Origin: an uncultured Actinomycetota bacterium
GTDB taxonomy: Bacteria > Actinomycetota > Actinomycetes > Propionibacteriales > Nocardioidaceae
Length of the DNA stretch: 64,000 nt
Assembly: GCA_963781515.1 (NCBI GenBank)
Contig: CAWAGL010000008.1
Span: 179,488 to 243,487, forward strand
Direction of reading: 5' to 3'
The stretch's first letter is position 1, and every line of letters starts with the position of its first letter. Below, piece by piece: positions 6,305 to 47,696 of the stretch. The translations under genes were made by a program, and so were the position numbers. Below the pieces are notes generated by a model that saw only the letters and a program-made list of their open reading frames with translations, searched no databases and was not told where the DNA came from.

Positions 6305-6862
6305 TCAATCGTCGGTGCGTCGACGTGGTGTCAGCGCCAGCAGCACGGCGGAGAACGCCAGCAGCGCCCCTGCGGGGAAGGCGACGAACGCCGCGGAGTC
6401 GAACGCGTAGACGTGTGGATGCAGGCCGGCTCCACCGACGCGCAGGTCACCCTTGATGGCGGTGAGGTCGTCGGCCGAGGCGGCGAGCACGGCCGGGTCG
6501 GGTGGGCCCAGGGCGTGACCGACGTGGAACATCAGCCAGCCGGCCAGCACGGCGCCCACGGCCACCGCGACCAGGGTCGCGACCTCGCCGTCCCTGCTCA
6601 TCAGGGCCGCGCCGGCCCCGAGCAGGACCCCGGCTGCGGCTGCGACGACGACGTACCAGCCGGTGCCGGCGAACTCGCCCGGCAGGCCGTTCTCGTCGAG
6701 CACGAACCTGCCCTGGAAGGCCACGCCGCTCGGTGGGGTCCAGACCCACTCCCACACCACGCCCGCCAGCGCGCCGAGCACTGCTGCGGCGACGAGCACC
6801 AGGAGGGCCTGCAGCATCCACCGGGAGACCCGCGCGCGGCGCCGGGTCAGCTCGCCAGACAT
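6305..6862 (-). CDS. hypothetical polytopic membrane protein (DUF2567-like)
   Basis: 185 aa with about 4 predicted TM helices. Its start overlaps the dnaE stop by 16 nt, so it is likely co-transcribed with dnaE. Confidence 0.6.
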   Translation of the reverse strand: MSGELTRRRARVSRWMLQALLVLVAAAVLGALAGVVWEWVWTPPSGVAFQGRFVLDENGLPGEFAGTGWYVVVAAAAGVLLGAGAALMSRDGEVATLVAVAVGAVLAGWLMFHVGHALGPPDPAVLAASADDLTAIKGDLRVGGAGLHPHVYAFDSAAFVAFPAGALLAFSAVLLALTPRRRTDD

Positions 6863-9800
6863 CCAGGTCCGAGGAGCTGCTTGAGGTCGGCGAACAGCGC
6901 CGGCGACGCGGTGACGCGGAGCCGGTCGTCGAGGCGCATGACGGTCGTCGAGGTGCGGGCCATCAGGCGCAGCTGCACCTCGGTCATCCCGGGGTGGGTG
7001 GCGAGCACCTCGCGGAGCTGGTCGACGGTCGCGGCGGTGCAGCGGGTGGCCGGCAACGAGATGACCACCGGACCGGACGGCCCGTCGGAGAGGTCGGGCT
7101 TGGTGACCTCCTGGCCGCGCAGCTCGGGCTGGTCCTTGTCGCGGGAGAGCTGACCCTTGACGCGGATGATGGCGTCCTCGACGAGGAACGGCGAGGCCAG
7201 CTGGTAGGAGCTCGGGAAGAGCAGCACCTCGATGGCGCCGTCGAGGTCCTCGAGGGTGACGGTGGCCCAGGCGTCGCCGCGCTTGGTGATCTTGCGCTGC
7301 ACCGAGGTGATCAGGCCGCTCACGGTCAGCGTGCTGCCGTGGGCGCGCTCCTCGTCGAGCATGAGCTGACCGATGGTGCAGTCGGTGCCGCTGGACAGCA
7401 CGTGCTCGAGGCCGAGGAGCGGGTGGTCGGAGACGTAGAGGCCGAGCATCTCGCGCTCATGGCCCAGGAGGGTCATCTTGTCCCACTCCTCGATGTCGGG
7501 CACCGGCACCGAGACGCCGAAGCCCAGGGAGTCGGCGCCGTCGGCGCTGGCCATCTCGGCGAAGAGCGAGTCCTGGCCGATGGCCTCGTTCTTCTTGATG
7601 TCGATGTACTGGTCGACGGCCGTCTCGTGGACGGTCACCAGCGCCCGGCGCTTGTGCTTCATGTCGTCGAAGGCGCCGGCCTTGACCAGCGACTCGATGA
7701 CCCGCTTGTTGCAGACCAGGGCGGGGACCTTCTCCATGAAGTCGTTGAAGTCGGTGTAGCGACCCTTCTCCTGACGGGCGCCCACGATGCCTTCGACCAC
7801 GTTGTGGCCGACGTTGCGGATCGCGGTGAGGCCGAAGCGGATGTCGTTGCCGACCGGGGTGAAGTTGGACGCCGACTCGTTGACGTCGGGCGGGAGCACC
7901 TGGATCTTCATCCGCCGGCACTCGTTGAGGTAGATCGCCGACTTGTCCTTGTCGTCCTTGGTCGACGTGAGGAGGGCGGCCATGTATTCAGCCGGGTAGT
8001 TGGCCTTGAGGTAGGCCGTCCAGTAGGACACCAGGCCGTACGCCGCTGAGTGCGCCTTGTTGAAGGCGTAGTCGGAGAACGGCAGCAGGATCTCCCACAG
8101 CTTGCTGATCGCGCCCTTGCTGTAGCCGCGCTCGATCATGCCGGCCGAGAAGCCCTCGAACTGCTTGTCGAGCTCTGCCTTCTTCTTCTTGCCCATCGCG
8201 CGCCGCAGGATGTCGGCCTGGCCCAGCGTGTAGCCCGCGAGCTTCTGCGCGATGGCCATCACCTGCTCCTGGTAGACGATCAGGCCGTAGGTCTCGCCCA
8301 GCACGTCCTGGAGCGGCTCGGCCAGCTCCGGATGGATGGCCTCGACGGGCTCTCGCCCGGTCTTGCGGCGGGCGTACTTGTTGTGGGAGTCGGCACCCAT
8401 CGGGCCGGGTCGGTAGAGCGCTCCCACCGCGGAGATGTCCTCGAAGGTGTCAGGCTTCATCGAGCGCAGCAACGACCGCATCGGGCCACCGTCGAGCTGG
8501 AAGACGCCGAGCGTGTCGCCGCGCTGGAGCAGCTTGTAGGTCGCGTCGTCGGTGAGCTCGAGCTCCTCGATGACGACGGTCTCGCCACGGTTGGCCTCGA
8601 TGTTCTTGATCGCGTCGTCGAGGACCGTGAGGTTGCGCAGCCCCAGGAAGTCCATCTTGATCAACCCGAGCGACTCACAGGTCGGGTAGTCGAACTGGGT
8701 GATCATGGCGCCGTCGGCGGGGCGCTTGAGCATCGGGATGATGTCGAGCAGCGGCTCGCTGGACATGATCACGCCGGCCGCGTGCACGCCCCACTGGCGC
8801 TTGAGGCCCTCGATGCCGATGGCGGTGTCGACCACGCGCTTGACGTCGTTGTCGCCGTCGTAGAGGGCGCGGAACTCGCCGCCCTCGCCGTAGCGCTTGT
8901 GGGCGGGGTCGAAGATGTCCTTGAGCGGGACGTCCTTGCCCATCACCGAGGCCGGCATCGCCTTGGTGACACGGTCGCCCATCGAGAACGGGTAGGCCAG
9001 GATCCGCGAGGAGTCCTTGACCGCCTGCTTGGCCTTGATCGTGCCGTAGGTGACGATCATCGACACCCGGTCGTCGCCGTACTTGTCGGAGACGTAGCGG
9101 ATGACCTCACCGCGCCGACGCTCGTCGAAGTCGATGTCGAAGTCGGGCATCGAGACCCGGTCGGGGTTGAGGAAGCGCTCGAAGAGCAGGCCGTGCACGA
9201 GCGGGTCGAGGTCGGTGATGCGCAGCGCGTAGGCCACGATCGAGCCCGCGCCGGAGCCGCGGCCCGGGCCGACCCGGATGCCCTGCTCCTTGGCCCAGTT
9301 GATGAAGTCGGAGACGACCAGGAAGTAGCCCGGGAAGCCCATCGCGGTGATGACGCCGACCTCGAAGTCGGCGCGCTTGCGGGCCTCGTCGGAGATGCCG
9401 CCCGGGTAGCGGAACCGCAGGCCCTTCTCGACCTCCTTGACCAGCCAGGAGTCCTCGTTCTCGCCCTCCGGGCACGGGAAGCGCGGCATGAACGTGCCGT
9501 TGCCCTCGGTGAAGGAGACGTCGCAGCGCTCGGCGATGAGCAGGGTGTTGTCGCAGGCCTCGCGCAGGTCGTACTTGTCGACCCACAGGGAGCGCATCTC
9601 CTCGGGGCTCTTGATGTAGTAGCCGTTGCCGCTGAACGCGAAGCGCTGGCCGGGGCCGTCACCGGCCGGGATGTCCATGGTCGAGCCGGAGTTGATGCAC
9701 AGCAGGTGCTCCTGGCTCTTCGCGTCCTCCTGCATGACGTAGTGGGAGTCGTTGGTCGCCAGCAGCGGGATCTGGAGGTCCTTCGCCAGCCGCAGCAGCC

Positions 9801-10416
9801 CGTCCCGCACCCGGCTCTCGATGGACAGGCCGTGGTCCATCAGCTCGAGGAAGTAGTTCTCGCGGCCGAGGATGTCCTGGAACTCACCGGCGACCTTGCG
9901 TGCCTCGTCGTACTTGCCGTAGCGCAGGTGCACCTGCACCTCGCCCGACGGGCAGCCGGTCGTGCCGATGATGCCCTTGCCGTGCTTGGCGAGCAGCTCG
10001 CGGTCCATCCGGGGCTGCTTGAAGAAGCCGTCGCGCCAGGCGCTCGTGGTGAGCCGGAACAGGTTGTGCATGCCCTCGGTCGACTCGGAGAGCAACGTCA
10101 TGTGGGTGTAGGCGCCGCGAGCCGAGACGTCGTCGGGACCGCCGTCGTAGAAGTTGACGCCCTTGCGCTCGAAGCGGGAGATGTTGGGGGTGAAGTAGGC
10201 CTCGATGCCGATGATCGGCTTGACCCCCGCCGCCTTGCAGAGCTTGTAGAACTCGTAGGCCCCGAACACGTTGCCGTGGTCGGTCATAGCGATCGCGGGC
10301 ATGCCCAGCTCGGCGGTGCGCTGAGCCAGTTGCTGCAGGCGGGCAGCGCCGTCGAGCATGGAGTACTCGGTGTGCACGTGGAGGTGCACGAAGGAGTCGC
10401 GAGAACCTTCAGCCAT
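6847..10416 (-). CDS. dnaE: DNA polymerase III alpha subunit (replicative DnaE1)
   Basis: 1189 aa. PHP domain opening FVHLHVHTEYSMLDGA; polymerase core blocks (GVFQLDGGPM, FNKAHSAAYG); C-terminal OB region. Confidence 0.95.
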   Translation of the reverse strand: MAEGSRDSFVHLHVHTEYSMLDGAARLQQLAQRTAELGMPAIAMTDHGNVFGAYEFYKLCKAAGVKPIIGIEAYFTPNISRFERKGVNFYDGGPDDVSARGAYTHMTLLSESTEGMHNLFRLTTSAWRDGFFKQPRMDRELLAKHGKGIIGTTGCPSGEVQVHLRYGKYDEARKVAGEFQDILGRENYFLELMDHGLSIESRVRDGLLRLAKDLQIPLLATNDSHYVMQEDAKSQEHLLCINSGSTMDIPAGDGPGQRFAFSGNGYYIKSPEEMRSLWVDKYDLREACDNTLLIAERCDVSFTEGNGTFMPRFPCPEGENEDSWLVKEVEKGLRFRYPGGISDEARKRADFEVGVITAMGFPGYFLVVSDFINWAKEQGIRVGPGRGSGAGSIVAYALRITDLDPLVHGLLFERFLNPDRVSMPDFDIDFDERRRGEVIRYVSDKYGDDRVSMIVTYGTIKAKQAVKDSSRILAYPFSMGDRVTKAMPASVMGKDVPLKDIFDPAHKRYGEGGEFRALYDGDNDVKRVVDTAIGIEGLKRQWGVHAAGVIMSSEPLLDIIPMLKRPADGAMITQFDYPTCESLGLIKMDFLGLRNLTVLDDAIKNIEANRGETVVIEELELTDDATYKLLQRGDTLGVFQLDGGPMRSLLRSMKPDTFEDISAVGALYRPGPMGADSHNKYARRKTGREPVEAIHPELAEPLQDVLGETYGLIVYQEQVMAIAQKLAGYTLGQADILRRAMGKKKKAELDKQFEGFSAGMIERGYSKGAISKLWEILLPFSDYAFNKAHSAAYGLVSYWTAYLKANYPAEYMAALLTSTKDDKDKSAIYLNECRRMKIQVLPPDVNESASNFTPVGNDIRFGLTAIRNVGHNVVEGIVGARQEKGRYTDFNDFMEKVPALVCNKRVIESLVKAGAFDDMKHKRRALVTVHETAVDQYIDIKKNEAIGQDSLFAEMASADGADSLGFGVSVPVPDIEEWDKMTLLGHEREMLGLYVSDHPLLGLEHVLSSGTDCTIGQLMLDEERAHGSTLTVSGLITSVQRKITKRGDAWATVTLEDLDGAIEVLLFPSSYQLASPFLVEDAIIRVKGQLSRDKDQPELRGQEVTKPDLSDGPSGPVVISLPATRCTAATVDQLREVLATHPGMTEVQLRLMARTSTTVMRLDDRLRVTASPALFADLKQLLGPGCLAS

Positions 10417-10740
10417 GGGCGGGGTACTGCTCCCAACACGGGTCGAGACGGACAGGAACCAGGCAGCCCGGCAGGTGCAGCCGGACGTCTGTCTCGGGGA
10501 AGGACGTCAGACTACGGGACCGCACGCGACCACCATCGCAGGGCACACCGACATCTCACCCCGGGCCGGCACCGGCGGCGTCATCCGGGGCGGCTTCCCG
10601 GTGGTCAAGACTTCGCCGTTTGGTCCCAAACCGCAGGAAACCGGCCGCTGGGGTTGCGGTTGTCGACCAATCGTGGGGTGTGGTCGCGGGCCGGGCGCCG
10701 GCGCCGGGCCGGACCTCCGCCGGGGTGACGCGGCGCCGGG

Positions 10741-38445: not shown

Positions 38446-38868
38446 TCAGAAGCCGGTTTCGCGCCGGCGTCGCCAGCGCTCCTCGATCCGCTCCATGAAG
38501 GAGCCGCCGGACGACGCGGCCCGGGTCTTGTGCCGGCGGCCGCCGTCGACCACTCCGAAGCCGCCGTGCGAGGTCTCGCGCGGCGCGGCCTGCTCGTTGC
38601 CGCGGCCCTGCCACGAGGTCAGTGCGACGGCTGCGGCTGCCAACATGACCAGGAAGCCGATGATGCCGACCCAGGCCCGCTCGGTGATGGCACCGGTCAT
38701 CAGGACGGCGACGCCGACCAGGAACACGCCAGCGGCGAGGACGGCACGACGGCGGGAGCGACGGGCGAAGGCGGTGCCGCGCAGGGTGTGCGCGAACTTG
38801 GGGTCCTCCTCGACAAGGGCACGTTCCATCTGCTCCAGAAGACGCAGTTCCTCTTCGGAGAGCGGCAC
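38446..38868 (-). CDS. DUF3040 family membrane protein
   Basis: GTG at 38868, 4 nt after AGGAGGAA. VPLSEEELRLLEQMERALVEEDPKFA is the typical DUF3040 opening, followed by two TM helices. Confidence 0.8.
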   Translation of the reverse strand: MPLSEEELRLLEQMERALVEEDPKFAHTLRGTAFARRSRRRAVLAAGVFLVGVAVLMTGAITERAWVGIIGFLVMLAAAAVALTSWQGRGNEQAAPRETSHGGFGVVDGGRRHKTRAASSGGSFMERIEERWRRRRETGF

Positions 38869-38995
38869 GGTTCCTCCTGACCCAGGTCGATGCGCGGCGG
38901 CCCGCGTTGCAGCAAGTCTAGGCAGGGCCTCCCCAAGACGGTAGGCGGCTCGGGAAATTCGCTGTCGAATCTTGGCCACCGGTCGTCTGGGCGGG

Positions 38996-40168
38996 TCAGC
39001 CGAGCAGGCTCGCCGGGCGTACGGCGGCGGATCCGAACCGTCGGGTGGCCCGGTCGACCGCCCGGTCGGCGTCGGCCCAACCGTGCTCGTTCTCGCCGAG
39101 GACGAGCTGGCGGTGCACCTGCTCGCGCGGCATCAGCCCCTCGACCCGCACCCCCACCAGCCGCAGCCGGGCACGCTGCAACCCCAAGGCGTCGTACAGC
39201 CGGGTCGCGGTGCGGTAGATCTCCTGGGTCACGTCGGTGGCCTCGGGCAGGGTGCGCGAGCGGGTGATGGTGGTGAAGTCGGCGAACCTGATCTTGATCG
39301 TGACGGTGCGGCCGGCCACGCCGGCCACCCGCATGCGGTGGGCGACCCGGGCCGAGAGCCGCAGCAGCTCGCGACCGATCACCTCGCGGTCGTCGGTGTC
39401 TCGGGAGAAGGTCTCGTCGGCGCCCATCGACCGGTCGGGCTCGCCCGGACCCCGTCGTGGCGTGATCACCCGCTGGTCGACACCCCAGGCGAGGTCGTGC
39501 AGGTGGCTGCCCAGGTGGTCGCCGACCGCGCGGCGCAGCGTGCGGACCGGGGTGTGGGCGACGTCGCCGACGGTGCGCAGGCCGAGACGGTGCAACATGG
39601 CCTGGGTCTTCTCCCCCACGCCCCACAGCTCACCCACGTCGAGGGGATGCAGGAACGACGTCACGGCGTGCGGCGCGACCACGACCACCCCGTCGGGCTT
39701 GGCCCGACGGCTGGCCAGCTTGGCCACCGACACCGATGCGGCCACCCCCACCGAGCAGGTGATGGCCTGCTCGTCGTAGATGGTCGCGCGCAGCCGCTCG
39801 GCGATCTCGAGCGGCGAGCCCAGCCGCCGGGTCGCACCGGAGACGTCGAGGAACGCCTCGTCGAGCGAGAGCACCTCGACCAGGGGGGTGATCCGCCGGA
39901 AGTTCTCCATGATCGCCGCCGAGACCTGCCCGAAGGTCTCGAAGTCGGGCGCGATCACCACCGCCTGCGGGCAGAGCCGGCGGGCCCGCGTCATCGGCAG
40001 CGCCGAGCGGACGGCGTACTGGCGGGCGAGGTAATTGGCCGAGAGCACCACGCCCCGGCTGCCGCCGCCGACGATGACCGGCACGTCCTGCAGGTCGGGG
40101 CGGTCGCGGGTGGCGACCGACGCATAGAACGCGTCCATGTCGACGTGCAGGATCGGCGTCCCGGTCAT
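38996..40168 (-). CDS. dinB: DNA polymerase IV (Y-family, catalytically intact)
   Basis: ILHVDMDAFYASV and SLDEAFLDV acidic catalytic motifs are present, as are little-finger and HhH regions. It lies 27 nt downstream of the methyltransferase gene. Confidence 0.9.
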   Translation of the reverse strand: MTGTPILHVDMDAFYASVATRDRPDLQDVPVIVGGGSRGVVLSANYLARQYAVRSALPMTRARRLCPQAVVIAPDFETFGQVSAAIMENFRRITPLVEVLSLDEAFLDVSGATRRLGSPLEIAERLRATIYDEQAITCSVGVAASVSVAKLASRRAKPDGVVVVAPHAVTSFLHPLDVGELWGVGEKTQAMLHRLGLRTVGDVAHTPVRTLRRAVGDHLGSHLHDLAWGVDQRVITPRRGPGEPDRSMGADETFSRDTDDREVIGRELLRLSARVAHRMRVAGVAGRTVTIKIRFADFTTITRSRTLPEATDVTQEIYRTATRLYDALGLQRARLRLVGVRVEGLMPREQVHRQLVLGENEHGWADADRAVDRATRRFGSAAVRPASLLG

Positions 40169-40195: not shown

Positions 40196-40909
40196 TCAGC
40201 GGTGGGACAGCAGGTGGAGCTGGGTCGCGAGGGGGAGGTACTCGGGGCGGGTGGAGGTGGCCCGCTCGAGCTCGACCAGCGCCGCAGTGGCACCGGGCTC
40301 GAGGTCGAGCAGGGAGCCGGGGACGAGATCGGCGAAGATGCGCACGCCGTGCACCGAGTCGACCGCGAAGCCCGCACCGGCCAGCAGGTCGGCGGCCTCG
40401 TCGTGGGTGAAGCGGCTGCCCGACCGGCCGCCAGCGACCGGGGTCGAGCCGTCGAGCAGGGCGAGGGCCTGCTGGAAGTGACCGGCCATCGCCCGGGCCA
40501 GCACGGCTGCGTGCCGCTGGGCGACCAGCAGGCTGAGCACCCCGCCGGGCCGGAGCACCTCGTGGATCGTGGCCAGGGCTGCTGCCGGGTCGTCGACGAC
40601 CTCGAGCAGGCCGTGACAGAGCACCACGTCGGCCTCCTCCACCACGTCGAGGAGTCCGTCGACGTCGCCCTGGAGACCGGTGACCCGGTCGAGGACGTCG
40701 CTCTCGGCGGCGCGACGCGCCAGCGCGGCCAGCGCGTCGGGGCTCGGGTCGACCACGGTGACGGTGTGGCCGAGCTGGGCGAGCCGGACCGCGAACCCGC
40801 CGGTGCCGCCACCGATGTCGACGATGCGCGCGCTCTCGTCGAGTGCAGCTTGGAGGGCATCCCACACGACAGCAGTGCGGGCGGTGCCTCGGCGGGCGCT
40901 TTCGGACAT
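40196..40909 (-). CDS. class I SAM-dependent methyltransferase
   Basis: Motif I IVDIGGGTGGFA and the post-I acidic residue VVDPS. 237 aa. It sits between dnaE2 and dinB with gaps of 22 and 27 nt. Confidence 0.8.
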   Translation of the reverse strand: MSESARRGTARTAVVWDALQAALDESARIVDIGGGTGGFAVRLAQLGHTVTVVDPSPDALAALARRAAESDVLDRVTGLQGDVDGLLDVVEEADVVLCHGLLEVVDDPAAALATIHEVLRPGGVLSLLVAQRHAAVLARAMAGHFQQALALLDGSTPVAGGRSGSRFTHDEAADLLAGAGFAVDSVHGVRIFADLVPGSLLDLEPGATAALVELERATSTRPEYLPLATQLHLLSHR

Positions 40910-40931: not shown

Positions 40932-43900
40932 TCACCCCGGGCTCCCCGGTGACCGGTGCCACAGCTTGCGGGCGACGTCGCGGGGGTTGTCGCCCGCGGG
41001 CATGATGTCGGAGTACGGCGACATCTGGAAGCCGCTGGAGTGGACCAGCACCCGCCGCTGCTCGGGGGCCGCCGGATCGCCGAAGCCGACCGGCACGGTG
41101 CGCATCGCCTCCCGGACCTCGGCCAGCCCGTCTGCCGAGGTCGGTGCCTGCTGCCAGCGGGCCATCAGGTCCGGCAGCGACCACGCGCCGGTGGCCCGCA
41201 GCGAGACCCCTCGTCGTCCGGTACGGCGCAGCTCGCCGCGGACCAGGAGCAGCCACGACCCGAACACGGTGGCGGCGTACGGACCCTGTGCGTCCTCGAA
41301 GAACGTCGCGTCGACCGGCCCCGTGGCGTCGTCGAGGGTCAGGAAGACGACGCGTCGGCCGGTGCGGATCGGCGGGGTCTGGGTGGCCACCTTCACCCCG
41401 GCGACCAGCAGCTCGGCCCTGCTGCGGCGCGCGAGCAGGTCGCGGCTGCGGGTCACCCCGAGGGCGTCGAGGAAGTCGGCGTAGCCGTCGATGACGTGCC
41501 TGCTGACGTCGAGCCCGAGGATCTCCAACTCGGCCTTCATGCGCTCCTCGCCGGTCAGCTCGGGCAGCCCGGTGACCTCGCCCTCGGCGGGCTCGTCGCC
41601 CAGGGCGAGGGTGAGCTGCACCGAGTCGACGGCACGCGGGGCGGCGGTGGCGCGGGACTGGGCCGCGGCCTGTCCCCACACGCCCTCCCGGGGTGCTGCG
41701 TCGGTGGTGCCGGCGCTGCGGGTGACCGGGTCGCTGCTGTTGCGGGCCGCGGCGTCGGTGGCCCGCTTGGTGGCCGGCAGCGGACGGCGTCCGGCGGCGA
41801 GCCCGCGACCACGACCGGCCCGGGCCGCCCGGTCGAGGGCTCGGGCATGACGGTCGAGCTCAGCCACCTGGAGGAGCAGGTCGCGGCGGGTCAGCCGGCC
41901 CCGGCGTCGTACGTCGGACTCCCCCGCGGCACCGATGCGGTAGATCGAGTCGAAGCCGCCGGTCAGCACCAGCCGCTCCACGACCGGCCGGGACACGGCC
42001 GCCCGGTGCCAGAAGTCGGTGAGCGAGTGGTAGGGCCGGCCCGCGACGATCCGGGCGACCTCGCCCGCATTGATGCCCTTCACCTCGGCGAGGGCGAGGC
42101 GGATGCCGTACGGCGCTCGCTCGGCCTCGCCCTCGGAGGCCAGCCGCTCGACGGCGTACTCCTTGGCGCTGGCGTTGACGTCGAGGGGCAGCACCTCGAT
42201 GCCGAAGTGGCGAGCGTCGTCGAGGATGAGGCGCTTGGGGTACATGCCCGGGTCGTGGGTGAGCACCCCGGAGAGGAAGTGCGCGGGCCAGTGCGCCTTG
42301 AGCCAGGCGGACTGGTAGGTCGGGAGGGCGAACGCCGCCGCGTGGGCCTTGCAGAAGCCGAACGACGCGAAGGCCTCGAGCACCTTCCAGATCTGCTCGG
42401 TGACCGCCGCGGAGTAGCCCCGGCCCAGGGACCGCGGCATGAACCAGGCCCGCGTCTGCGCCATCCCCTCGACGTCGCCCAGGGCCCGGCGCTTCTCGTC
42501 GGCCTCGGCATAGCCGACCCCGGCGAACTGGGCGATCATCTCGATGACCTGCTCATGGAAGACGACCACCCCGTGGGTGGGCGCCAGGATCGGGATCAGG
42601 TCGTCGTGCAGGTAGGAGGAGGCCCGCCAACCCTGCTTGACCTCCAGGTAGGGAGTGATCATGTCGCTCTTGACCGGCCCCGGCCGGAACAGCGAGATGT
42701 CGGTGATGATGTCGTCGAAGGAGCCGATGCCGGACTTGCCGACCAGCTCGCGCTGGCCGGGAGACTCGATCTGGAAGACGCCCAGGGTCTTGGCGGCGCT
42801 GATCATGTCGAAGGTCGTGCTGTCGTCGAACGGCACCTGCGCCTCGTCGTCGAGGTCGACGTCGACACCATCGACCCGAGCGATCTCGGCCACCGCGTGC
42901 GCCATCGCCGACTGCATGCGGATGCCGAGCACGTCGAGCTTGAGCAGGCCGAGGTCCTCGACGTCGTCCTTGTCGAACTGGCTCATCGGGAAGCCCGCAT
43001 AGCTCGCCTCGACCGGCGTGCGGTCGAGCAGGGTCGCGTCGGAGAGCAGCACGCCGCAGGGGTGCACGGCGATGTGGCGCGGCAGCCCGTCGAGCCGCTC
43101 CACCAGCCGGAACATCAGGTCGAGCCGCTCCTCCCCGAGACCGCTGGCCCGCAGCTCGGGCAGCTCGCGCAGCGCCACCCGGGCGTCACGGGCCCGGATG
43201 TGCGGGAACGCCTTGGCGATCGCGTCGATCTCGCCCGGCGGCATGCCCAGCGCGGCACCGACGTCGCGGACGGCGTGCCGGACACGGTAGGTGTCCATCA
43301 TCGAGACGCACACGCACCGCTCGCCGCCGTAGCGGTCGAGGATCGCCTCGTAGACCTCCAGCCGGCGGGCCGACTCGACGTCGACGTCGATGTCGGGCAA
43401 CGACTGGCGCAGCGGCGAGAGGAACCGCTCCATCAGCAGGTTGTGGCGGATCGGGTCGACACCGGAGACACCGAGCAGGTAGTTGACCAGGCTGCCCGCG
43501 CCCGACCCCCGGGCCGCGCTGCGCACCCCCATCTGCTTGATCAGGTCGGTGACGTCGCCGACGGTGAGGAAGTACGACGCGTAGCCGAGCTCGCGGATGA
43601 TCTCGAGCTCGTCGTCGAGCCGCTTCCAGATGCGCTGGCGGGGCGCGGATCCGTAGCGCCAGCCGATGCCGCCCTCGCAGCGGGCGCGCAGCAGCGCGTC
43701 GGCCTCGGAGACACCGGGGGTGGAGACGACCAGGCGGTCGGTGGCCTGCGAGACGCCCCCTTCTGATGCGACGGCTGATGGGACGGCTGACTTCGACAGC
43801 TCGAGCTCCGGGAAGTGCACCTCACCGATGCCCAGGTCGCCGCGCGGGTCCAGCGCGCAGCGGTCGCCGATCGTGCGGGTGGCGGCCAGCAGCGACCGGG

Positions 43901-44816
43901 CGTCGCGCGGGCCGAGGCCGGCGAGCCGGCAGATCTCGTCGGCCACCTCGTGCATCTGCTTGCCGGACTTGAGGAAGCCCTCGGCATTGCCCCGGAAGTC
44001 AGCAGGGCCGAGGTGACGGAACTGGCCGGAGCCCAACGGGACCAGCCGCCGGGCCGCGTCGAGGACGTCGATGGTCGGGGCGTCGAGCCGGTCGGCGTAG
44101 CGCACCGCGTTGGTCAGCACGGCACTCACCCCGGCGGCGCGGGCCAGGCCGGCCATCCGGGCGGCGTGCGGAGTGGTGCCGGGACCCCAGGTCGCCCGAC
44201 TGCCGGCGGCCAGCCGGTGGGAGACCAGCTCGACCACGAGATTCTCCGGGGGCAGCACGCCGCGCCACACGTCGAGGATCGCCCGGGCCTCGTCGTCGCG
44301 GTGCCGGGTCACCGCAGCCCCCAGCTCGGAGGCCGGCCCGAGCAAGACGAGCACGCCACCCCCCACCAGGTGCGGCGCCAGCAGGTCGAGGTCGGCCACC
44401 GGTCGCCCCCGCTCACCGGTGAGGTGGGCGGCCGAGACCAGCCGGCAGATCGCCGCCCAGCCGGCCCGACCCTGGGCCAGCAGGGTGACCCGGGGCAGGG
44501 ACTCCTCGTCGCGGAACGCTCCGCCGCGCGCGGGAGTGCGGCGCGACGACTGCACCCGGCCATCGTGGGCCCCACCATCGTGGACCCGGCCCGAGGTCGG
44601 CAGCACCGCGAGGTCGACCCCCAGGACCGGGCGGATGCCTGCCCGGCTGCACGCCTTGGCGAACTTCACCGCGCCGTAGGTGCCGTCGCGGTCGGTCAGC
44701 GCCAGGGTGTCCATCTCCTGCTCGGCGGCCCGCTCGACCAGCGTGTGCGGGTGCGAGGCGCCGTACTGCAGGGAGTAGCCGGAGGCCACGTGGAGATGGA
44801 CGAACGGGTCGGACAT
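40932..44816 (-). CDS. dnaE2: error-prone DNA polymerase III alpha paralogue (DnaE2 type)
   Basis: PHP opening FVHLHVASGYSLQYGAS and Pol IIIa core blocks (GVFQIESPGQRE, FCKAHAAAFA). This is a second dnaE copy in the window, with a perfect LexA box about 50 nt upstream. The DnaE2 subfamily call rests on context plus memory of actinobacterial DnaE2 N-termini. Confidence 0.85.
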   Translation of the reverse strand: MSDPFVHLHVASGYSLQYGASHPHTLVERAAEQEMDTLALTDRDGTYGAVKFAKACSRAGIRPVLGVDLAVLPTSGRVHDGGAHDGRVQSSRRTPARGGAFRDEESLPRVTLLAQGRAGWAAICRLVSAAHLTGERGRPVADLDLLAPHLVGGGVLVLLGPASELGAAVTRHRDDEARAILDVWRGVLPPENLVVELVSHRLAAGSRATWGPGTTPHAARMAGLARAAGVSAVLTNAVRYADRLDAPTIDVLDAARRLVPLGSGQFRHLGPADFRGNAEGFLKSGKQMHEVADEICRLAGLGPRDARSLLAATRTIGDRCALDPRGDLGIGEVHFPELELSKSAVPSAVASEGGVSQATDRLVVSTPGVSEADALLRARCEGGIGWRYGSAPRQRIWKRLDDELEIIRELGYASYFLTVGDVTDLIKQMGVRSAARGSGAGSLVNYLLGVSGVDPIRHNLLMERFLSPLRQSLPDIDVDVESARRLEVYEAILDRYGGERCVCVSMMDTYRVRHAVRDVGAALGMPPGEIDAIAKAFPHIRARDARVALRELPELRASGLGEERLDLMFRLVERLDGLPRHIAVHPCGVLLSDATLLDRTPVEASYAGFPMSQFDKDDVEDLGLLKLDVLGIRMQSAMAHAVAEIARVDGVDVDLDDEAQVPFDDSTTFDMISAAKTLGVFQIESPGQRELVGKSGIGSFDDIITDISLFRPGPVKSDMITPYLEVKQGWRASSYLHDDLIPILAPTHGVVVFHEQVIEMIAQFAGVGYAEADEKRRALGDVEGMAQTRAWFMPRSLGRGYSAAVTEQIWKVLEAFASFGFCKAHAAAFALPTYQSAWLKAHWPAHFLSGVLTHDPGMYPKRLILDDARHFGIEVLPLDVNASAKEYAVERLASEGEAERAPYGIRLALAEVKGINAGEVARIVAGRPYHSLTDFWHRAAVSRPVVERLVLTGGFDSIYRIGAAGESDVRRRGRLTRRDLLLQVAELDRHARALDRAARAGRGRGLAAGRRPLPATKRATDAAARNSSDPVTRSAGTTDAAPREGVWGQAAAQSRATAAPRAVDSVQLTLALGDEPAEGEVTGLPELTGEERMKAELEILGLDVSRHVIDGYADFLDALGVTRSRDLLARRSRAELLVAGVKVATQTPPIRTGRRVVFLTLDDATGPVDATFFEDAQGPYAATVFGSWLLLVRGELRRTGRRGVSLRATGAWSLPDLMARWQQAPTSADGLAEVREAMRTVPVGFGDPAAPEQRRVLVHSSGFQMSPYSDIMPAGDNPRDVARKLWHRSPGSPG

Positions 44817-44864
44817 GAGCCTGCCTTCGCGGACCGTGTCGACCCCAGCACCGTGATGGAGTGA

Positions 44865-44880
44865 TCGAACAGGTGTTCGA
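44865..44880. promoter_or_regulatory. LexA (SOS) box TCGAAC-aggt-GTTCGA upstream of dnaE2
   Basis: Perfect match to the actinobacterial consensus TCGAAC-N4-GTTCGA. The palindrome extends to GTGATCGAACAGGTGTTCGATCAC (44861-44884). Confidence 0.85.
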
Positions 44881-44926: not shown

Positions 44927-46135
44927 TCATCCCCAGATCGCGGCCGCCCACTCGGGGTGGTCGACGAACGGGTTCCGGTTGTGCTGGTAGGTGTCGAAGA
45001 TGACGTCGTTGCGACGCATCTCGAAGCCGCTCGGCGGATCCTGCTGGCTCCACCGGAGCAGCACCGAGAGCCGGCCGATGTGCGGCGCGGACCCGTTGCC
45101 GGTCAGGTCGTTGACCTCGAGGTCGGCGAACCCGTCACCACCCTCGTAGCGCACCGACATGTAGAAGATCATCCGGGCGACGTCGCCCTTGACCGCGTCG
45201 CGCGGCTCCCAGGAGTCGCCGTCGGCGTAGTTGCCGGGCGCCTCGGCGTTCTCGGTGCCGCCCTCGTCGAAGTCGAGGTTGCCCCGGGCGGAGTTGACGG
45301 TGACGTCGGTGGGACGCAGGTGGTGGATGTCGGTGCCCGGGCCGGTCGCCGTGCCGAAGTCGCCGTGCGACTTGGCCCAGACGTGCTCGCGGTTCCACTG
45401 GTCGGGGCCGCCGCCGTTGTTCGACTTCGGCACGCTGTCACCGGTGTAGAGCTCGATGACGTTGCCGGGGTCGGCGGGGTCCTGGTCGGTGTCCTTCAGT
45501 GCGTTCCAGACGCCGTCGTAGGACAGCCGGGTCACGCCGGCGGAGATGATCGAGTGGAGTGCGGACTCCAGCTGGGGACCGGACTTGCCGAGGGCCGCGG
45601 CGTAGTAGTCGTCGTGCTCGCCGGGGTCGCCCGGGTCGGCGCCCGAGGCGAAGGCGAAGGCGCTGGCACCGGTCAGGCCCGGCCGGGAGAAGTACGCCGA
45701 GAGGGCGCCGGTGACGTCGACCTGACGGCCCAGCAGGGCGGGGTTGGACCTCAGCCCCCAGGCGGACCGGAAGGCGCTGGGGATCTGCACGTAGAGCATC
45801 TGCGCGGGGTCGGTGACCCCGGCGCTGTCGGCCAGCGCCAGCGCGTAGTCGTTGGGGAACCCGCTGCGGACCACGGTGGTCGAGGCGGTCGGCTGACCCA
45901 CGACGTAGCCGCGGACCGTCGCGACCGAGCCGTCCTGGGTGGCCCGCGCCTGGGCGACGCTCAGCGGCGTCGCTGCCGTGACCGCCGTGGCCGCTGGGGC
46001 CGACTGCGACGCCGGCACGGCCTGCGCCGACTGCGTCAGGGGTACGACGGCCGCGAGGGCCGCGAGCATCGTGATGAGAAGGGTGGCGATCGCAGGCGCG
46101 GTGCGCGCGCGGTGCGTCCCGAGAGGTTGGTGCAC
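44927..46135 (-). CDS. secreted endonuclease I family nuclease (EndA/NucM-like) with an N-terminal OB-like domain
   Basis: GTG at 46135, 6 nt after GGAG. Signal peptide ...LLITMLAALAAVVPLTQSAQA. Catalytic-region blocks REHVWAKSHGDFG and DIHHLRPTDVTVNSARGN. Confidence 0.8.
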   Translation of the reverse strand: MHQPLGTHRARTAPAIATLLITMLAALAAVVPLTQSAQAVPASQSAPAATAVTAATPLSVAQARATQDGSVATVRGYVVGQPTASTTVVRSGFPNDYALALADSAGVTDPAQMLYVQIPSAFRSAWGLRSNPALLGRQVDVTGALSAYFSRPGLTGASAFAFASGADPGDPGEHDDYYAAALGKSGPQLESALHSIISAGVTRLSYDGVWNALKDTDQDPADPGNVIELYTGDSVPKSNNGGGPDQWNREHVWAKSHGDFGTATGPGTDIHHLRPTDVTVNSARGNLDFDEGGTENAEAPGNYADGDSWEPRDAVKGDVARMIFYMSVRYEGGDGFADLEVNDLTGNGSAPHIGRLSVLLRWSQQDPPSGFEMRRNDVIFDTYQHNRNPFVDHPEWAAAIWG

Positions 46136-46208
46136 GGAGGACTCCGTCCGGGTGTGGCCGGGGCTCCCCGATGAAGCCCCTGACCGGCCCGTCGAGACTA
46201 GCGCCCGG

Positions 46209-46664
46209 TCAGGCGACCCCGGCACGTCCGCCGGTGACGACCAGCCGCTTCTCGAGCGGCGCGTGCGGCACCAGCCCGAGCGCCGACTCGATGATGCCGA
46301 GGAACCGGTCGGCGTCACGGACCAGGTCGTCGGCCTCGCGCTCGGTGACCGCGCGGGTCGAGCCGGCCTCGGCCGCCGCACGCTTGCTGGCGCCGGCGGC
46401 GAAGAACGTCGCCCACTCGGCCAGCTCGGGGGCCACGTCGGCCAGCAGCACCCAGGCGTTCTTCTGCCGGCGTCGGCCGGGCGACGGATGGGCGCGGGCC
46501 GCCAGCAGCGCAGCGGTGGCCCGCAGGGCGGCCACGTGGGCGCAGGCATAGCGAGACGGCACGTCGGCCGCGGTGATCGCCTCCTGCAGCGACTCGGCGG
46601 CGCGGGCGAGGTAGGAGTGGGTGGTGGCGGGGAGCAGGTAGGGGTTCACGTCGTGCACCGGCAT
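46209..46664 (-). CDS. HEPN-domain protein (SAV_6107-like family)
   Basis: ORF 46209..46952 trimmed to the ATG at 46664 (MPVHDVNPYLLPATTHSYLARAAESL...). All-helical text with an R-x4-H motif (SRYACAH). The ATG shares one base with the upstream stop (TGATG). The family name is from memory. Confidence 0.7.
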   Translation of the reverse strand: MPVHDVNPYLLPATTHSYLARAAESLQEAITAADVPSRYACAHVAALRATAALLAARAHPSPGRRRQKNAWVLLADVAPELAEWATFFAAGASKRAAAEAGSTRAVTEREADDLVRDADRFLGIIESALGLVPHAPLEKRLVVTGGRAGVA

Positions 46665-47041
46665 CAGTCGACACAGCCGACGAGGGACCAGCGGCCGTCG
46701 GACCAGTCGAAGGAGAGGTCGAAGACGCCGCCGCCGTCGGCGCAGGCCCCGCCCCGGCCGGCATGCACGCGCCACAGCTCGCGCTCGACGAGCAGGTCGT
46801 GGGCGCCCCGGTCGACGACCGTGCCCCCGGCCTCGGCCCCGGGCTCGTCGTCGGTGCCGACCACGGCTCGCACCCCGGCCGACTGCCACCAGGGCGCGGT
46901 CTCCACCCAGTGCGCCACCACGGAGCGGACCTTCCACAGCCGGCCGCGCCACAAGAACTGCTCGGGGCCCTCCTCGTCGGTGTCGGGCTCTCCACCGATG
47001 CGTCCCCTGCGGACCTCAACGGGGTCGTCGTACCGCCTCAT
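46664..47041 (-). CDS. DUF6504-like small protein
   Basis: 125 aa (MRRYDDPVEVRRGRI...FLWRGRLWKVRSVVAHWVETAPWW...). AGGAGA lies 6-7 nt before the ATG, and a LexA box lies about 80 nt upstream. The family name is from memory. Confidence 0.7.
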   Translation of the reverse strand: MRRYDDPVEVRRGRIGGEPDTDEEGPEQFLWRGRLWKVRSVVAHWVETAPWWQSAGVRAVVGTDDEPGAEAGGTVVDRGAHDLLVERELWRVHAGRGGACADGGGVFDLSFDWSDGRWSLVGCVD

Positions 47042-47073
47042 CTGGCTCTCCTGTCAGCGTGGTCGACCCCGGC

Positions 47074-47118
47074 CAACCTCGGTGACGATGGGGGTCGAGG
47101 TCACCGCCACCGAGGTTG
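47074..47118 (-). other. 5' UTR hairpin between the LexA box and the SD of the DUF6504 gene
   Basis: Perfect 11-bp inverted repeat CAACCTCGGTG (47074-47084) / CACCGAGGTTG (47108-47118) with a 23-nt loop. Confidence 0.6.
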
Positions 47119-47120
47119 CA

Positions 47121-47136
47121 TCGAACAGTTGTTCGA
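47121..47136. promoter_or_regulatory. LexA (SOS) box TCGAAC-agtt-GTTCGA upstream of DUF6504-HEPN
   Basis: Perfect match to TCGAAC-N4-GTTCGA. Confidence 0.85.
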
Positions 47137-47145
47137 ACAACGCCA

Positions 47146-47176
47146 AAGGTACACCGGCCCACCGACAGTGCGTCAA
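47146..47176 (-). promoter_or_regulatory. RecA-NDp (PafBC-type) promoter-like motif cTGTCGGTG-8nt-TACCTT, with TTGACG just upstream
   Basis: The sense strand reads ATTGACGCACTGTCGGTGGGCCGGTGTACCTTTGG. This matches the published tTGTCRgtg-8nt-TAnnnT pattern position by position. Confidence 0.5.
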
Positions 47177-47195
47177 TGGTCTGGCGGCGAGCGCT

Positions 47196-47696
47196 TCAGA
47201 ACGAGCGGAAGTACCGGTTGGTGTCCTTGTGCCAGAGCAGGAGGACCAGCACCAGGCACAGCGCGATCGCGGCGTAGGAGAGCACCGCGAACAACACCGG
47301 CAGACCCAGTCGCACGACCACGGTCGCGGCGAGGATGCCGAACACCGCGGTGGCCGCCAGCGACAGCCGGGCCCACTCGTGACCCTCGACGAAGAAGGCG
47401 GTGAGCACCAGCACCAGCAGCGCGAAGACGGCGAAGAAGACGACGGCGAGGGGCACGAACGACGGTGCGATGGGACTGTCCTTGACCGCCTGCACCCCGC
47501 CCTCGGCGAGCAGCTTGCGGGCGGCGACGTTGCCCTCGGCCCAGGTGGCGATGACCTCGTCCTGGCGCACCCAGACCATCAGGGCGGCGAGCCCGGTGAC
47601 GACGACCAGCGCGAACAGCACCCGGACGGCGTTGATCACCGACTTCGGCCGCGCGGACGCAGTCGCGCCGGTCGGCTGGTTGGGCACGGTGGTCAT
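47196..47696 (-). CDS. hypothetical membrane protein (4 TM helices)
   Basis: ORF trimmed to the ATG at 47696 (MTTVPNQPTGATASARPKS...). There are four hydrophobic helices and no recognisable motif. Confidence 0.6.
   Translation of the reverse strand: MTTVPNQPTGATASARPKSVINAVRVLFALVVVTGLAALMVWVRQDEVIATWAEGNVAARKLLAEGGVQAVKDSPIAPSFVPLAVVFFAVFALLVLVLTAFFVEGHEWARLSLAATAVFGILAATVVVRLGLPVLFAVLSYAAIALCLVLVLLLWHKDTNRYFRSF

Follow-up and report, generated by a model that had tools for sequence, protein, structure and literature searches.

Positions 47176 to 46209 of the 64-kb window (by which we mean the whole stretch of DNA analysed) are read on the minus strand and contain a promoter region, a structured leader and two tightly packed genes, open reading frames 1 and 2 (ORF1 and ORF2). 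The window has a G+C content of 72% and its best matches in sequence searches are to Nocardioides. ORF1 (46664..47041, minus strand) encodes a 125-residue DUF6504 protein and ORF2 (46209..46664, minus strand) a 151-residue protein of the HEPN_SAV_6107 family. An earlier sequence-only reading had described five features here, namely a LexA box, a PafBC-type promoter, a leader hairpin with a ribosome-binding site, two overlapping reading frames and an R-x4-H motif in the second product, and all five are found where it placed them when the minus strand of 46100-47400 is read. That reading took the two genes to be a damage-induced module in their own right. We compared the locus with 80 Nocardioidaceae loci (L001-L080) and with the more distant loci L081-L092, and consider it likely, with a probability of roughly 80%, that the region comprises the first two cistrons, with their control region, of a DNA damage-inducible translesion synthesis (TLS), or mutasome, operon of a Nocardioides-like actinobacterium. 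The DUF6504-HEPN pair is part of a mutasome operon and not a self-contained two-gene module, and the comparison with relatives indicates that the features described below are functional and not chance occurrences.

The identity of ORF1 is central to this interpretation. It matches PF20114 (DUF6504) in Pfam with E = 1.4e-17, and ORF2 matches PF18726 (HEPN_SAV_6107), these being the two families guessed at from the sequence alone; no NCBIfam model matches either protein. The accompanying statement that neither family has an assigned function is outdated, as DUF6504 corresponds to the standalone ImuB-C subunit described in a 2026 survey of bacterial DNA polymerases that recognizes DnaE2 groups A, B and X (NAR 2026, PMC12926913). 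ImuB-C is there defined as a free-standing protein homologous to the beta-barrel at the C-terminus of ImuB, and the systems 'DnaE2B-[ImuB-C]' and 'DnaE2B-PolY-[ImuB-C]-RecA' are reported from Actinobacteria only (PMC12926913). ORF1 is 67% identical (E = 1e-49) to the Nocardioides euryhalodurans ImuB-C QBR94233, and PF20114 is matched by all six actinobacterial ImuB-C proteins of the survey, with four scores exceeding the curated cut-off. The AlphaFold2 model of ORF1 is all-beta with six strands (predicted local distance difference test score, pLDDT, 75.6), and a fold search of the PDB returned no relative of the model, in line with the published statement that ImuB-C has a 'novel fold'; sequence searches of solved structures likewise returned no relatives of ORF1 or ORF2. 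The orthology, the PF20114 matches and the all-beta model lacking a PDB relative together identify DUF6504, as judged from sequence and predicted fold, as the ImuB-C subunit. A profile-profile alignment of DUF6504 with the non-actinobacterial ImuB-C ACZ39476 is not significant, albeit with the W...WW motif aligned correctly and with a shallow profile, and PF20114 does not detect ImuB-C proteins of the DnaE2X type. It is thus the published analysis, together with direct orthology, that links DUF6504 to the C-terminal domain of ImuB.

The other genes of the system lie downstream on the same strand. A 1294-residue C-family polymerase of the DnaE2B type (40932..44816, minus strand) has the C-family domain set in both Pfam and NCBIfam, and is 66% identical over its N-terminal 416 residues to N. 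euryhalodurans DnaE2B QBR90836. It is followed by a class I S-adenosylmethionine-dependent methyltransferase gene (40196..40909, minus strand; Pfam), a conserved partner of the HEPN gene that follows either HEPN or dnaE2B in nearly all loci, including those of Streptomyces, and then by a gene for a Y-family polymerase (PolY/DinB-like; 38996..40168, minus strand) with IMS, IMS_HHH and IMS_C domains and a RecA-NT-like C-terminus. This polymerase is 77% identical to PolY-core QBR90838 through to its C-terminal ...DRAVDRATRRFGSAAVRPA, a tail that we read by eye as a RecA-NT motif, and it is apparently catalytically intact. By sequence, the window thus encodes a complete DnaE2B-PolY-ImuB-C cassette; neither imuA nor imuB is present among the ORFs scanned in the 64 kb, as had been noted previously. 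An ORF assigned to DUF3040 by synteny and position only (38446..38979, minus strand) marks the end of the conserved block, and in L081, L089 and L091 the gene that comes after PolY or the methyltransferase encodes DUF3040.

Between ORF2 and dnaE2B, 73 nt after the HEPN stop codon, is a gene with a signal peptide and Pfam matches to Endonuclease_1 and DUF6359 (44927..46135, minus strand), whose product is predicted to be secreted. Among the 80 Nocardioidaceae loci an endonuclease gene lies between HEPN and the downstream genes in L006, L007, L032, L035, L052 and L076, with a weak match in L046, a distribution that marks it as a lineage-specific insertion between HEPN and dnaE2B. The HEPN reading frame in the window ends in ...GTCGCCTGA, a relic of the HEPN-dnaE2B overlap that is seen in relatives, and the insertion after HEPN accounts for the LexA promoter that dnaE2B has of its own, with a second perfect LexA box at 44865..44880 in front of the gene. 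If the endonuclease gene is co-transcribed with the genes around it, a secreted DNase would be under SOS/PafBC control.

The order DUF6504-HEPN-dnaE2B-methyltransferase-polY is the commonest one, found in about 55 of the 80 Nocardioidaceae loci, and the same five genes occur in the same order in L081-L083, a lineage with 46% identity. Gene presence in the 80 loci is nested, such that dnaE2B is never found without DUF6504 and DUF6504 is never found without HEPN; the 14 loci without a detectable DUF6504 gene also lack dnaE2B, and most consist of HEPN and the methyltransferase gene with or without polY. Spacing is close throughout. The gap between DUF6504 and HEPN is at most 17 nt in all but one of 65 loci, L080 being the exception, and this short gap is the usual rule; the sharing of one base by the stop and start codons in TGATG, correctly described for the 125- and 151-codon frames here, is seen in only 3 of the 65 relatives. 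At the HEPN stop and the dnaE2B start the two genes share 8 nt (GTGTCGCCTGA) in 22 of 55 loci, and they lie 24 nt or less apart in 44 of the 55.

More distant relatives separate these genes into different combinations. In Nonomuraea, DUF6504 abuts dnaE2B with no HEPN gene and with a LexA-like box upstream. Streptomyces noursei (L089) has HEPN-methyltransferase-DUF3040 at the syntenic site with no polymerase gene, and L091 has HEPN-polY-DUF3040. HEPN is the most persistent gene at the promoter and is found without DUF6504 in Streptomyces and others. It had been asked whether the pair and its two promoter motifs travel together: the motifs are indeed widely kept, but the pair is not, as each gene also occurs without the other. 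Two linkages follow, one of DUF6504 with dnaE2B, and one of HEPN with the methyltransferase and/or polY at the same chromosomal site. The table of PMC12926913 also lists ImuB-C, DnaE2B and PolY accessions that are separated by gaps of one in Janibacter (APH01277/79/81) and Kineococcus (ABS04677/79/81), suggesting that one gene lies between imuB-C and dnaE2B and another between dnaE2B and polY in the orders to which these genera belong; we infer that these are HEPN and the methyltransferase.

Two observations on plasmid records can be added. In the Nonomuraea gerenzanensis sequence NZ_LT559118.1 (L084:6741-6998) DUF6504 ends exactly at the dnaE2B start, behind GAGAACATATGTTCGA; this record is filed as a 'plasmid' in PLSDB, is 11.85 Mb long and is almost unannotated. 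The plasmid matches to DnaE2B are to Streptomyces dnaE2-type genes that have neither DUF6504 nor HEPN nearby.

The promoter of the operon is organized in the same way across these genomes. A perfect LexA operator, TCGAAC-N4-GTTCGA (47121..47136; TCGAAC-aact-GTTCGA on the minus strand), lies 79 nt from the ORF1 ATG at 47041, close to the 80 nt estimated before. Upstream of it is a RecA-NDp/PafBC-type promoter, TGTCGGTG-ggccggtg-TACCTT (47146..47167, minus strand), in which a -26 element TGTCGG is separated by N10 from the -10 element TACCTT, and 3 nt further upstream is a -35-like TTGACG (47171..47176, minus strand), both as originally described. The arrangement fits the PafBC consensus tGTCgg(N10)tA(N3)T, in which the structure shows the GTC triplet to be read by PafB at -26 and TAnnnT to be the SigA -10 (PMC8635444), with the GTC-bearing element at the correct spacing from the TAnnnT sequence. 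The motif scan found no other exact RecA-NDp match in the window, and the two perfect LexA boxes, at 47121-47136 and 44865-44880, are the only ones in the 64 kb. LexA matches with two or fewer mismatches number eight in the window against 2.6 expected, and none of 100 shuffles reaches eight.

Conservation of this layout is extensive. A LexA box with no more than one mismatch is present upstream in 79 of the 80 Nocardioidaceae loci, and a GTC[GC]G element is located 29-31 nt upstream of the box in about 65 of them, so that the motifs are kept at orthologous loci, which the sequence-only reading had set as a check. Alignment of the 60 nt upstream of the LexA box in the 80 loci gives the consensus cTTGACg-N3-4-TGTCGG-N10-TAccnT-N8-9-TCGAAC-N4-GTTCGA, and the layout is unchanged whether DUF6504 or HEPN is the first gene. 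The PafBC-like spacing is also kept in 89 of 117 metagenomic leaders. Among the distant lineages a LexA box is found in L086, L087, L088 and L091 and most keep a PafBC-like element, the S. noursei promoter being TGTCAGTG-N8-CACGAT without a LexA box. With the -10 element 9 nt upstream of the operator, bound LexA would sit on the transcription start. Dual control by LexA and a PafBC-type promoter, as proposed earlier, is well supported by the strict positional conservation of both motifs, and it has a precedent in the mycobacterial imuA'/imuB and dnaE2 genes, which have a LexA box as well as a PafBC motif and whose expression is co-dependent on SOS and PafBC (bioRxiv 10.1101/2021.08.05.455301). 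The precedent together with the motifs described here suggests that the same dual logic appears on a non-homologous mutasome cassette.

The TTGAC sequence of the -35-like element, for which the 80-locus consensus is cTTGACg, is kept in most of the L001-L080 loci 3-4 nt upstream of the PafBC -26 element and 19 nt from the -10. To our knowledge, mycobacterial PafBC promoters are reported without any -35 consensus. A candidate LexA operator with two mismatches within ORF1 (46707-46722) was rejected, as it codes for the conserved FDLSFD of DUF6504; the site recurs in most relatives as TCGACCTCTCCTTCGA, a pattern attributable to coding constraint.

The leader between promoter and ORF1 contains a hairpin (47074..47118, minus strand) with arms at 47118-47102 and 47090-47074. 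The 11 perfect base pairs noted at the outset are present and, with G-U pairs included, the stem is 17 bp long. It encloses a near-invariant 11-nt loop (47101-47091; ACCTCGACCCC / ACCUCGACCCC), and is followed by GGGGTCGA (47063..47070), a complement of the loop and its candidate pseudoknot partner, and by the Shine-Dalgarno sequence AGGAGA of ORF1 (47047..47052), which was also correctly read before. Covariation was assessed on 64 leaders. Compensatory changes are seen at all 12 of the 12 stem pairs tested, 92.3% of cells form standard pairs against 71.6% in shuffles, double-change cells number 151 against 34 in shuffles, and the covariation score is 0.614 compared to 0.18 or less in slid registers. 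The loop GACCUCGACCCCC is almost invariant across leaders. A covariance model scores 41-60 bits on the sense strand and at most 27.5 bits on the antisense strand, with exactly one sense-strand match per locus, and this strand asymmetry, together with the G-U pairs, indicates that the conserved structure is a sense-strand RNA.

Evidence for the pseudoknot comes from the sequence downstream of the hairpin. In 36 of 65 leaders the downstream 100 nt contain an exact GGGGTCGA, against a background of 0.016 per 100 nt, and the longest complement to the loop averages 7.75 nt as against 5.33 in shuffles. Of 62 intact loops, 54 have a perfect complement of at least 7 nt, compared with 5 nt, a length no better than chance, for each of the three mutated ones. 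In the distant L081-83 the covariance model finds a weak match with the same loop, and there the complementary GGGGGUCG is at the ribosome-binding site. It is probable, from these patterns, that the leader forms a loop-to-3' pseudoknot near the ribosome-binding site. Rfam 15 contains no matching family, the only hits being chance microRNA matches to the LexA palindrome. A scan of metagenomes for the LexA box plus loop found at least 120 stretches; among the matches listed, DUF6504 and/or HEPN genes follow in 104 of about 110 that could be assessed, and a strong fold is predicted in 113 of 120. We read the leader as a cis-acting RNA specific to the mutasome operon.

A related motif is seen away from the operon promoter. 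Where there is an insertion between HEPN and dnaE2B (L004, L007, L013, L020 and L035), a new LexA-box promoter is present followed by GGGGTCGAG with no hairpin; the motif after this secondary promoter is GGGTCGAG in L035 and GGGGTCGA in the window, at 44841-44848. Its presence behind secondary LexA promoters in the absence of a hairpin raises the possibility that the short motif has a role of its own.

ORF2 is a clear member of its family, with E = 6.6e-35 and 120 bits against a cut-off of 27.2 for PF18726 in Pfam, which places it in the HEPN clan. The family has 4233 matches in 956 clusters at 50% identity, all from Actinomycetota as far as the names show. Its AlphaFold2 model is confident (pLDDT 90.9) and all-helical, as predicted beforehand, with a four-helix up-down bundle, and the best Foldseek matches are to the HEPN proteins 2hsb, 1wol, 4nqf, 7bxo and 3o10 with template modelling (TM) scores of 0.54-0.74, although the E-values of the top matches are weak (0.03-0.2). 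Among 60 diverse homologues A46, W71 and G101 are invariant, and R38, Y39, H43, R48, R95, D112, D113, R116 and others are at least 90% conserved, so both residues of the R-x4-H motif recognized earlier are conserved. The location of that motif is not the one expected of a HEPN nuclease. The catalytic Rx4-6H of HEPN proteins is where helix 3 ends and has a polar residue after the R, and the original classification lists the SAV_6107 family as 'No' for its conservation (PMC3710099). In ORF2, R38-YACA-H43 opens helix 2 (H35-57 in the model) and the residue after R38 is Tyr, and helix 3 ends with K-R95-AAAEA-G101, which contains no His, so the canonical catalytic motif is absent. Because the R-x4-H is on helix 2 and not at the canonical catalytic position, a toxin or defence function for this HEPN protein is not supported.

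A HEPN_SAV_6107 homologue with about 50% identity (P0260) is encoded at L092:8001-8486, on a 35-kb phage-like contig with many small unannotated ORFs and an RNase H. Two apparent fusions, HEPN-PHP (P0247, in L090) and the 546-residue P0272, were rejected as natural proteins, as both come from frameshift-ridden long-read metagenome assemblies.

The sequence-only reading had favoured a damage-triggered RNase toxin acting through R38-x4-H43, with DUF6504 as its antitoxin or partner, and a toxin-antitoxin or defence module of this kind would be in keeping with the HEPN fold, the conservation of R38 and H43, the tight packing of the two genes and the homologue on the phage-like contig. It nevertheless does not hold up, be it for the co-occurrence of the genes, their distribution, the position of the motif or the scans for defence families. 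Fourteen of the 80 Nocardioidaceae loci have HEPN and no DUF6504, as do Streptomyces and L091, and DUF6504 lies beside dnaE2B without HEPN both in Nonomuraea and in the Arthrobacter, Cryobacterium and Pseudarthrobacter dimers of the PMC12926913 table. The locus is syntenic across orders with proteins that are 45-80% identical, unlike the fast-evolving mobile genes of toxin-antitoxin systems; the HEPN gene has no PADLOC match, neither ORF1 nor ORF2 has a match in the phage or plasmid collections, and the HEPN_SAV_6107 family has none in 50,697 phage records. The helix 2 motif with its following Tyr, the loss of the His at the helix 3 site and the original description of the family as not conserving Rx4-6H complete the case, and we regard this explanation as very improbable. 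A catalytic role of another type, as a non-canonical RNase or RNA-binding HEPN that uses H43 on helix 2 with R95 where helix 3 ends, on the model of AF0298 and AbiV, and whose target may be its own leader in a feedback circuit, draws on the near-invariance of R38, Y39, H43, R48 and R95 and the invariance of G101, on AF_0298 (2hsb) being the best structural match, a protein for which an alternative His-based active site has been proposed (PMC3710099), and on the covarying leader that accompanies the HEPN gene with or without DUF6504. We think it unlikely, however, in that S. noursei (L089) and L091 have no such leader upstream of HEPN, and conservation of these residues could equally mark a protein-binding surface.

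A different view concedes the mutasome genes but denies HEPN any part in them: HEPN and the methyltransferase would be an older damage-response pair, and the TLS genes would have been inserted at the locus simply for its LexA/PafBC promoter. The Streptomyces HEPN-methyltransferase-DUF3040 arrangement at the same locus without polymerase genes is consistent with such promoter sharing, as are the 14 Nocardioidaceae loci that lack both DUF6504 and dnaE2B. Moreover, the ImuB-C, DnaE2B and PolY accessions of Tessaracoccus are consecutive, implying that there are no intervening genes, and the published models form good complexes without HEPN. Small genes directly upstream of an SOS-controlled Y-family polymerase gene, co-transcribed with it behind a LexA box, are familiar from umuD-umuC and from yqjX-yqjW/yolD-uvrX. 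HEPN is directly before polY in L091, as umuD and yqjX are before their Y-family polymerase genes, and the interleaved gene order kept across several orders, with 8-nt HEPN-dnaE2B overlaps in 22 of 55 loci, exceeds what promoter sharing would need. Promoter sharing without a functional link is a serious if rather unlikely explanation. The sequence-only reading had offered as a fallback that the pair is an accessory of neighbouring translesion machinery, and this holds for ORF1 as the ImuB-C orthologue.

Several points weigh against the mutasome operon interpretation with HEPN as a participant. Its regulation is deduced from motifs and from the mycobacterial precedent, and a study of Streptomyces venezuelae reporting no evident conservation there of the mycobacterial PafBC motif (PMC9380542) leaves the use of PafBC outside mycobacteria unproven. 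Genes for PafBC and RecA are not in the 64-kb window. HEPN and the methyltransferase go unmentioned in the DnaE2B mutasome study (PMC12926913), which therefore gives no support for HEPN joining the complex, and since HEPN is kept in Streptomyces without an adjacent polymerase gene its connection to TLS could be the shared promoter only. The near-invariance of R38, H43 and R95 also means that the protein may have an unconventional catalytic site. With regard to PafBC in closer relatives, we take the listed accessions A1SK18 and A1SK19 to be from Nocardioides sp. JS614, an organism not named in the text of the paper in which they appear. Ten actinobacterial PafB/PafC pairs are listed there (PMC6789036).

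A plausible scenario for the mutasome operon is that PafBC, activated by single-stranded DNA, binds the -26 TGTCGG and adapts the housekeeping sigma factor to the TACCTT -10, and that LexA bound to TCGAAC-N4-GTTCGA over the predicted start blocks transcription until its RecA-stimulated self-cleavage. Induction would then need both signals, as shown for mycobacterial imuA'/imuB and dnaE2. The leader of about 98 nt folds into the conserved hairpin, whose loop stretch CCUCGACCCC can pair with the GGGGUCGA stretch upstream of the ribosome-binding site to form the proposed pseudoknot, and is a candidate for post-transcriptional control, whether through translation, mRNA stability or as a protein-binding site. 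The ORF1 product is predicted to enter a tetramer with DnaE2B, PolY and RecA, as its counterparts do in AlphaFold models published for Nocardioides and for related systems; for the M. tuberculosis mutasome, AlphaFold modelling places the homologous C-terminal domain of ImuB in contact with the DnaE2 PHP domain (PMC12926913). HEPN may be the ancestral damage-inducible gene of the locus, where Nocardioidaceae and other orders have imuB-C, dnaE2B and polY interleaved with HEPN and the methyltransferase gene. The HEPN product is unlikely to be a toxin. Most likely it is a small protein with a non-toxic accessory or regulatory role in the response to damage, perhaps alongside the TLS polymerases, whose genes adjoin or overlap its own. 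A more speculative extension, which we put forward as distinctly unlikely, is that HEPN_SAV_6107 is an unrecognized fifth component or regulator of the mutasome, perhaps RNA-directed, with the pseudoknot-forming leader of its operon as the RNA that it binds or cleaves. If this were so, error-prone synthesis would be subject to a HEPN/RNA feedback loop in addition to promoter control by LexA and PafBC.

The closest known relative is the DnaE2B-PolY-ImuBC-RecA system of Tessaracoccus lapidicaptus and N. euryhalodurans (NAR 2026, PMC12926913), of which the same three proteins are present here at 66-77% identity in the shared order imuB-C ... dnaE2B ... polY, with no imuA or imuB in view. The published system is one of four subunits, and the HEPN and methyltransferase genes that lie between them in most genomes go unremarked; in this window an endonuclease I gene also splits the operon, and dnaE2B has its own LexA box. 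The mycobacterial ImuA'-ImuB-DnaE2 mutasome is similar in combining a damage-inducible, error-prone C-family polymerase with accessory factors, and ImuB-C here corresponds to the C-terminal beta-barrel of its ImuB. It differs in having ImuA' and a full-length inactive ImuB, neither of which is found among the ORFs scanned in the window, where the Y-family partner is apparently catalytically intact, and in having a DnaE2A and not a DnaE2B group polymerase. Its genes have been shown to require both pathways through the LexA box and PafBC motif; here such regulation is predicted from the motifs.

ORF2 shares the four-helix up-down bundle and the clan of HEPN RNases such as HEPN-MNT/HepT toxins, RNase LS, Cas13 and Csm6, but the SAV_6107 family does not conserve their Rx4-6H at the end of helix 3, ORF2 has no nucleotidyltransferase partner, and it is a syntenic core gene of a DNA-damage regulon and not a mobile toxin or defence gene. 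The resemblance to umuD- and yolD-type layouts, which is followed by HEPN-polY in L091 and by HEPN-dnaE2B in most Nocardioidaceae, is positional only, as UmuD and YolD have beta folds to which the helical HEPN is unrelated.

Mutation after DNA damage, which in mycobacteria extends to drug resistance, is driven by error-prone polymerases of the DnaE2 type. The role of DnaE2 in Streptomyces has been termed a mystery (PMC3273824), and the DnaE2B systems of most other Actinomycetota have so far been predicted by modelling only. What the present locus and its relatives add is a DnaE2B mutasome operon that appears to have the same dual LexA/PafBC logic as that demonstrated experimentally for the unrelated ImuA'-ImuB cassette, a conserved set of HEPN-fold and methyltransferase genes interleaved with the mutasome genes and overlooked until now, and a structured, covarying leader RNA with a near-invariant loop that is abundant in soil metagenomes and absent from Rfam.

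Among the other genes in the window, the replicative DnaE1 is encoded separately at 6847-10506 (minus strand). Its upstream region has a RecA-NDp-like motif with one mismatch, TGTCGGTG-N8-GATGGT (10532-10553, minus strand), 26 nt before the ORF start, and no LexA box. The mutasome block itself is flanked by genes for methylenetetrahydrofolate reductase, a YbaK-like protein and MoxR/DUF58/TgpA proteins, and the genes further on look, from their position and size, like mraZ and the dcw cluster.

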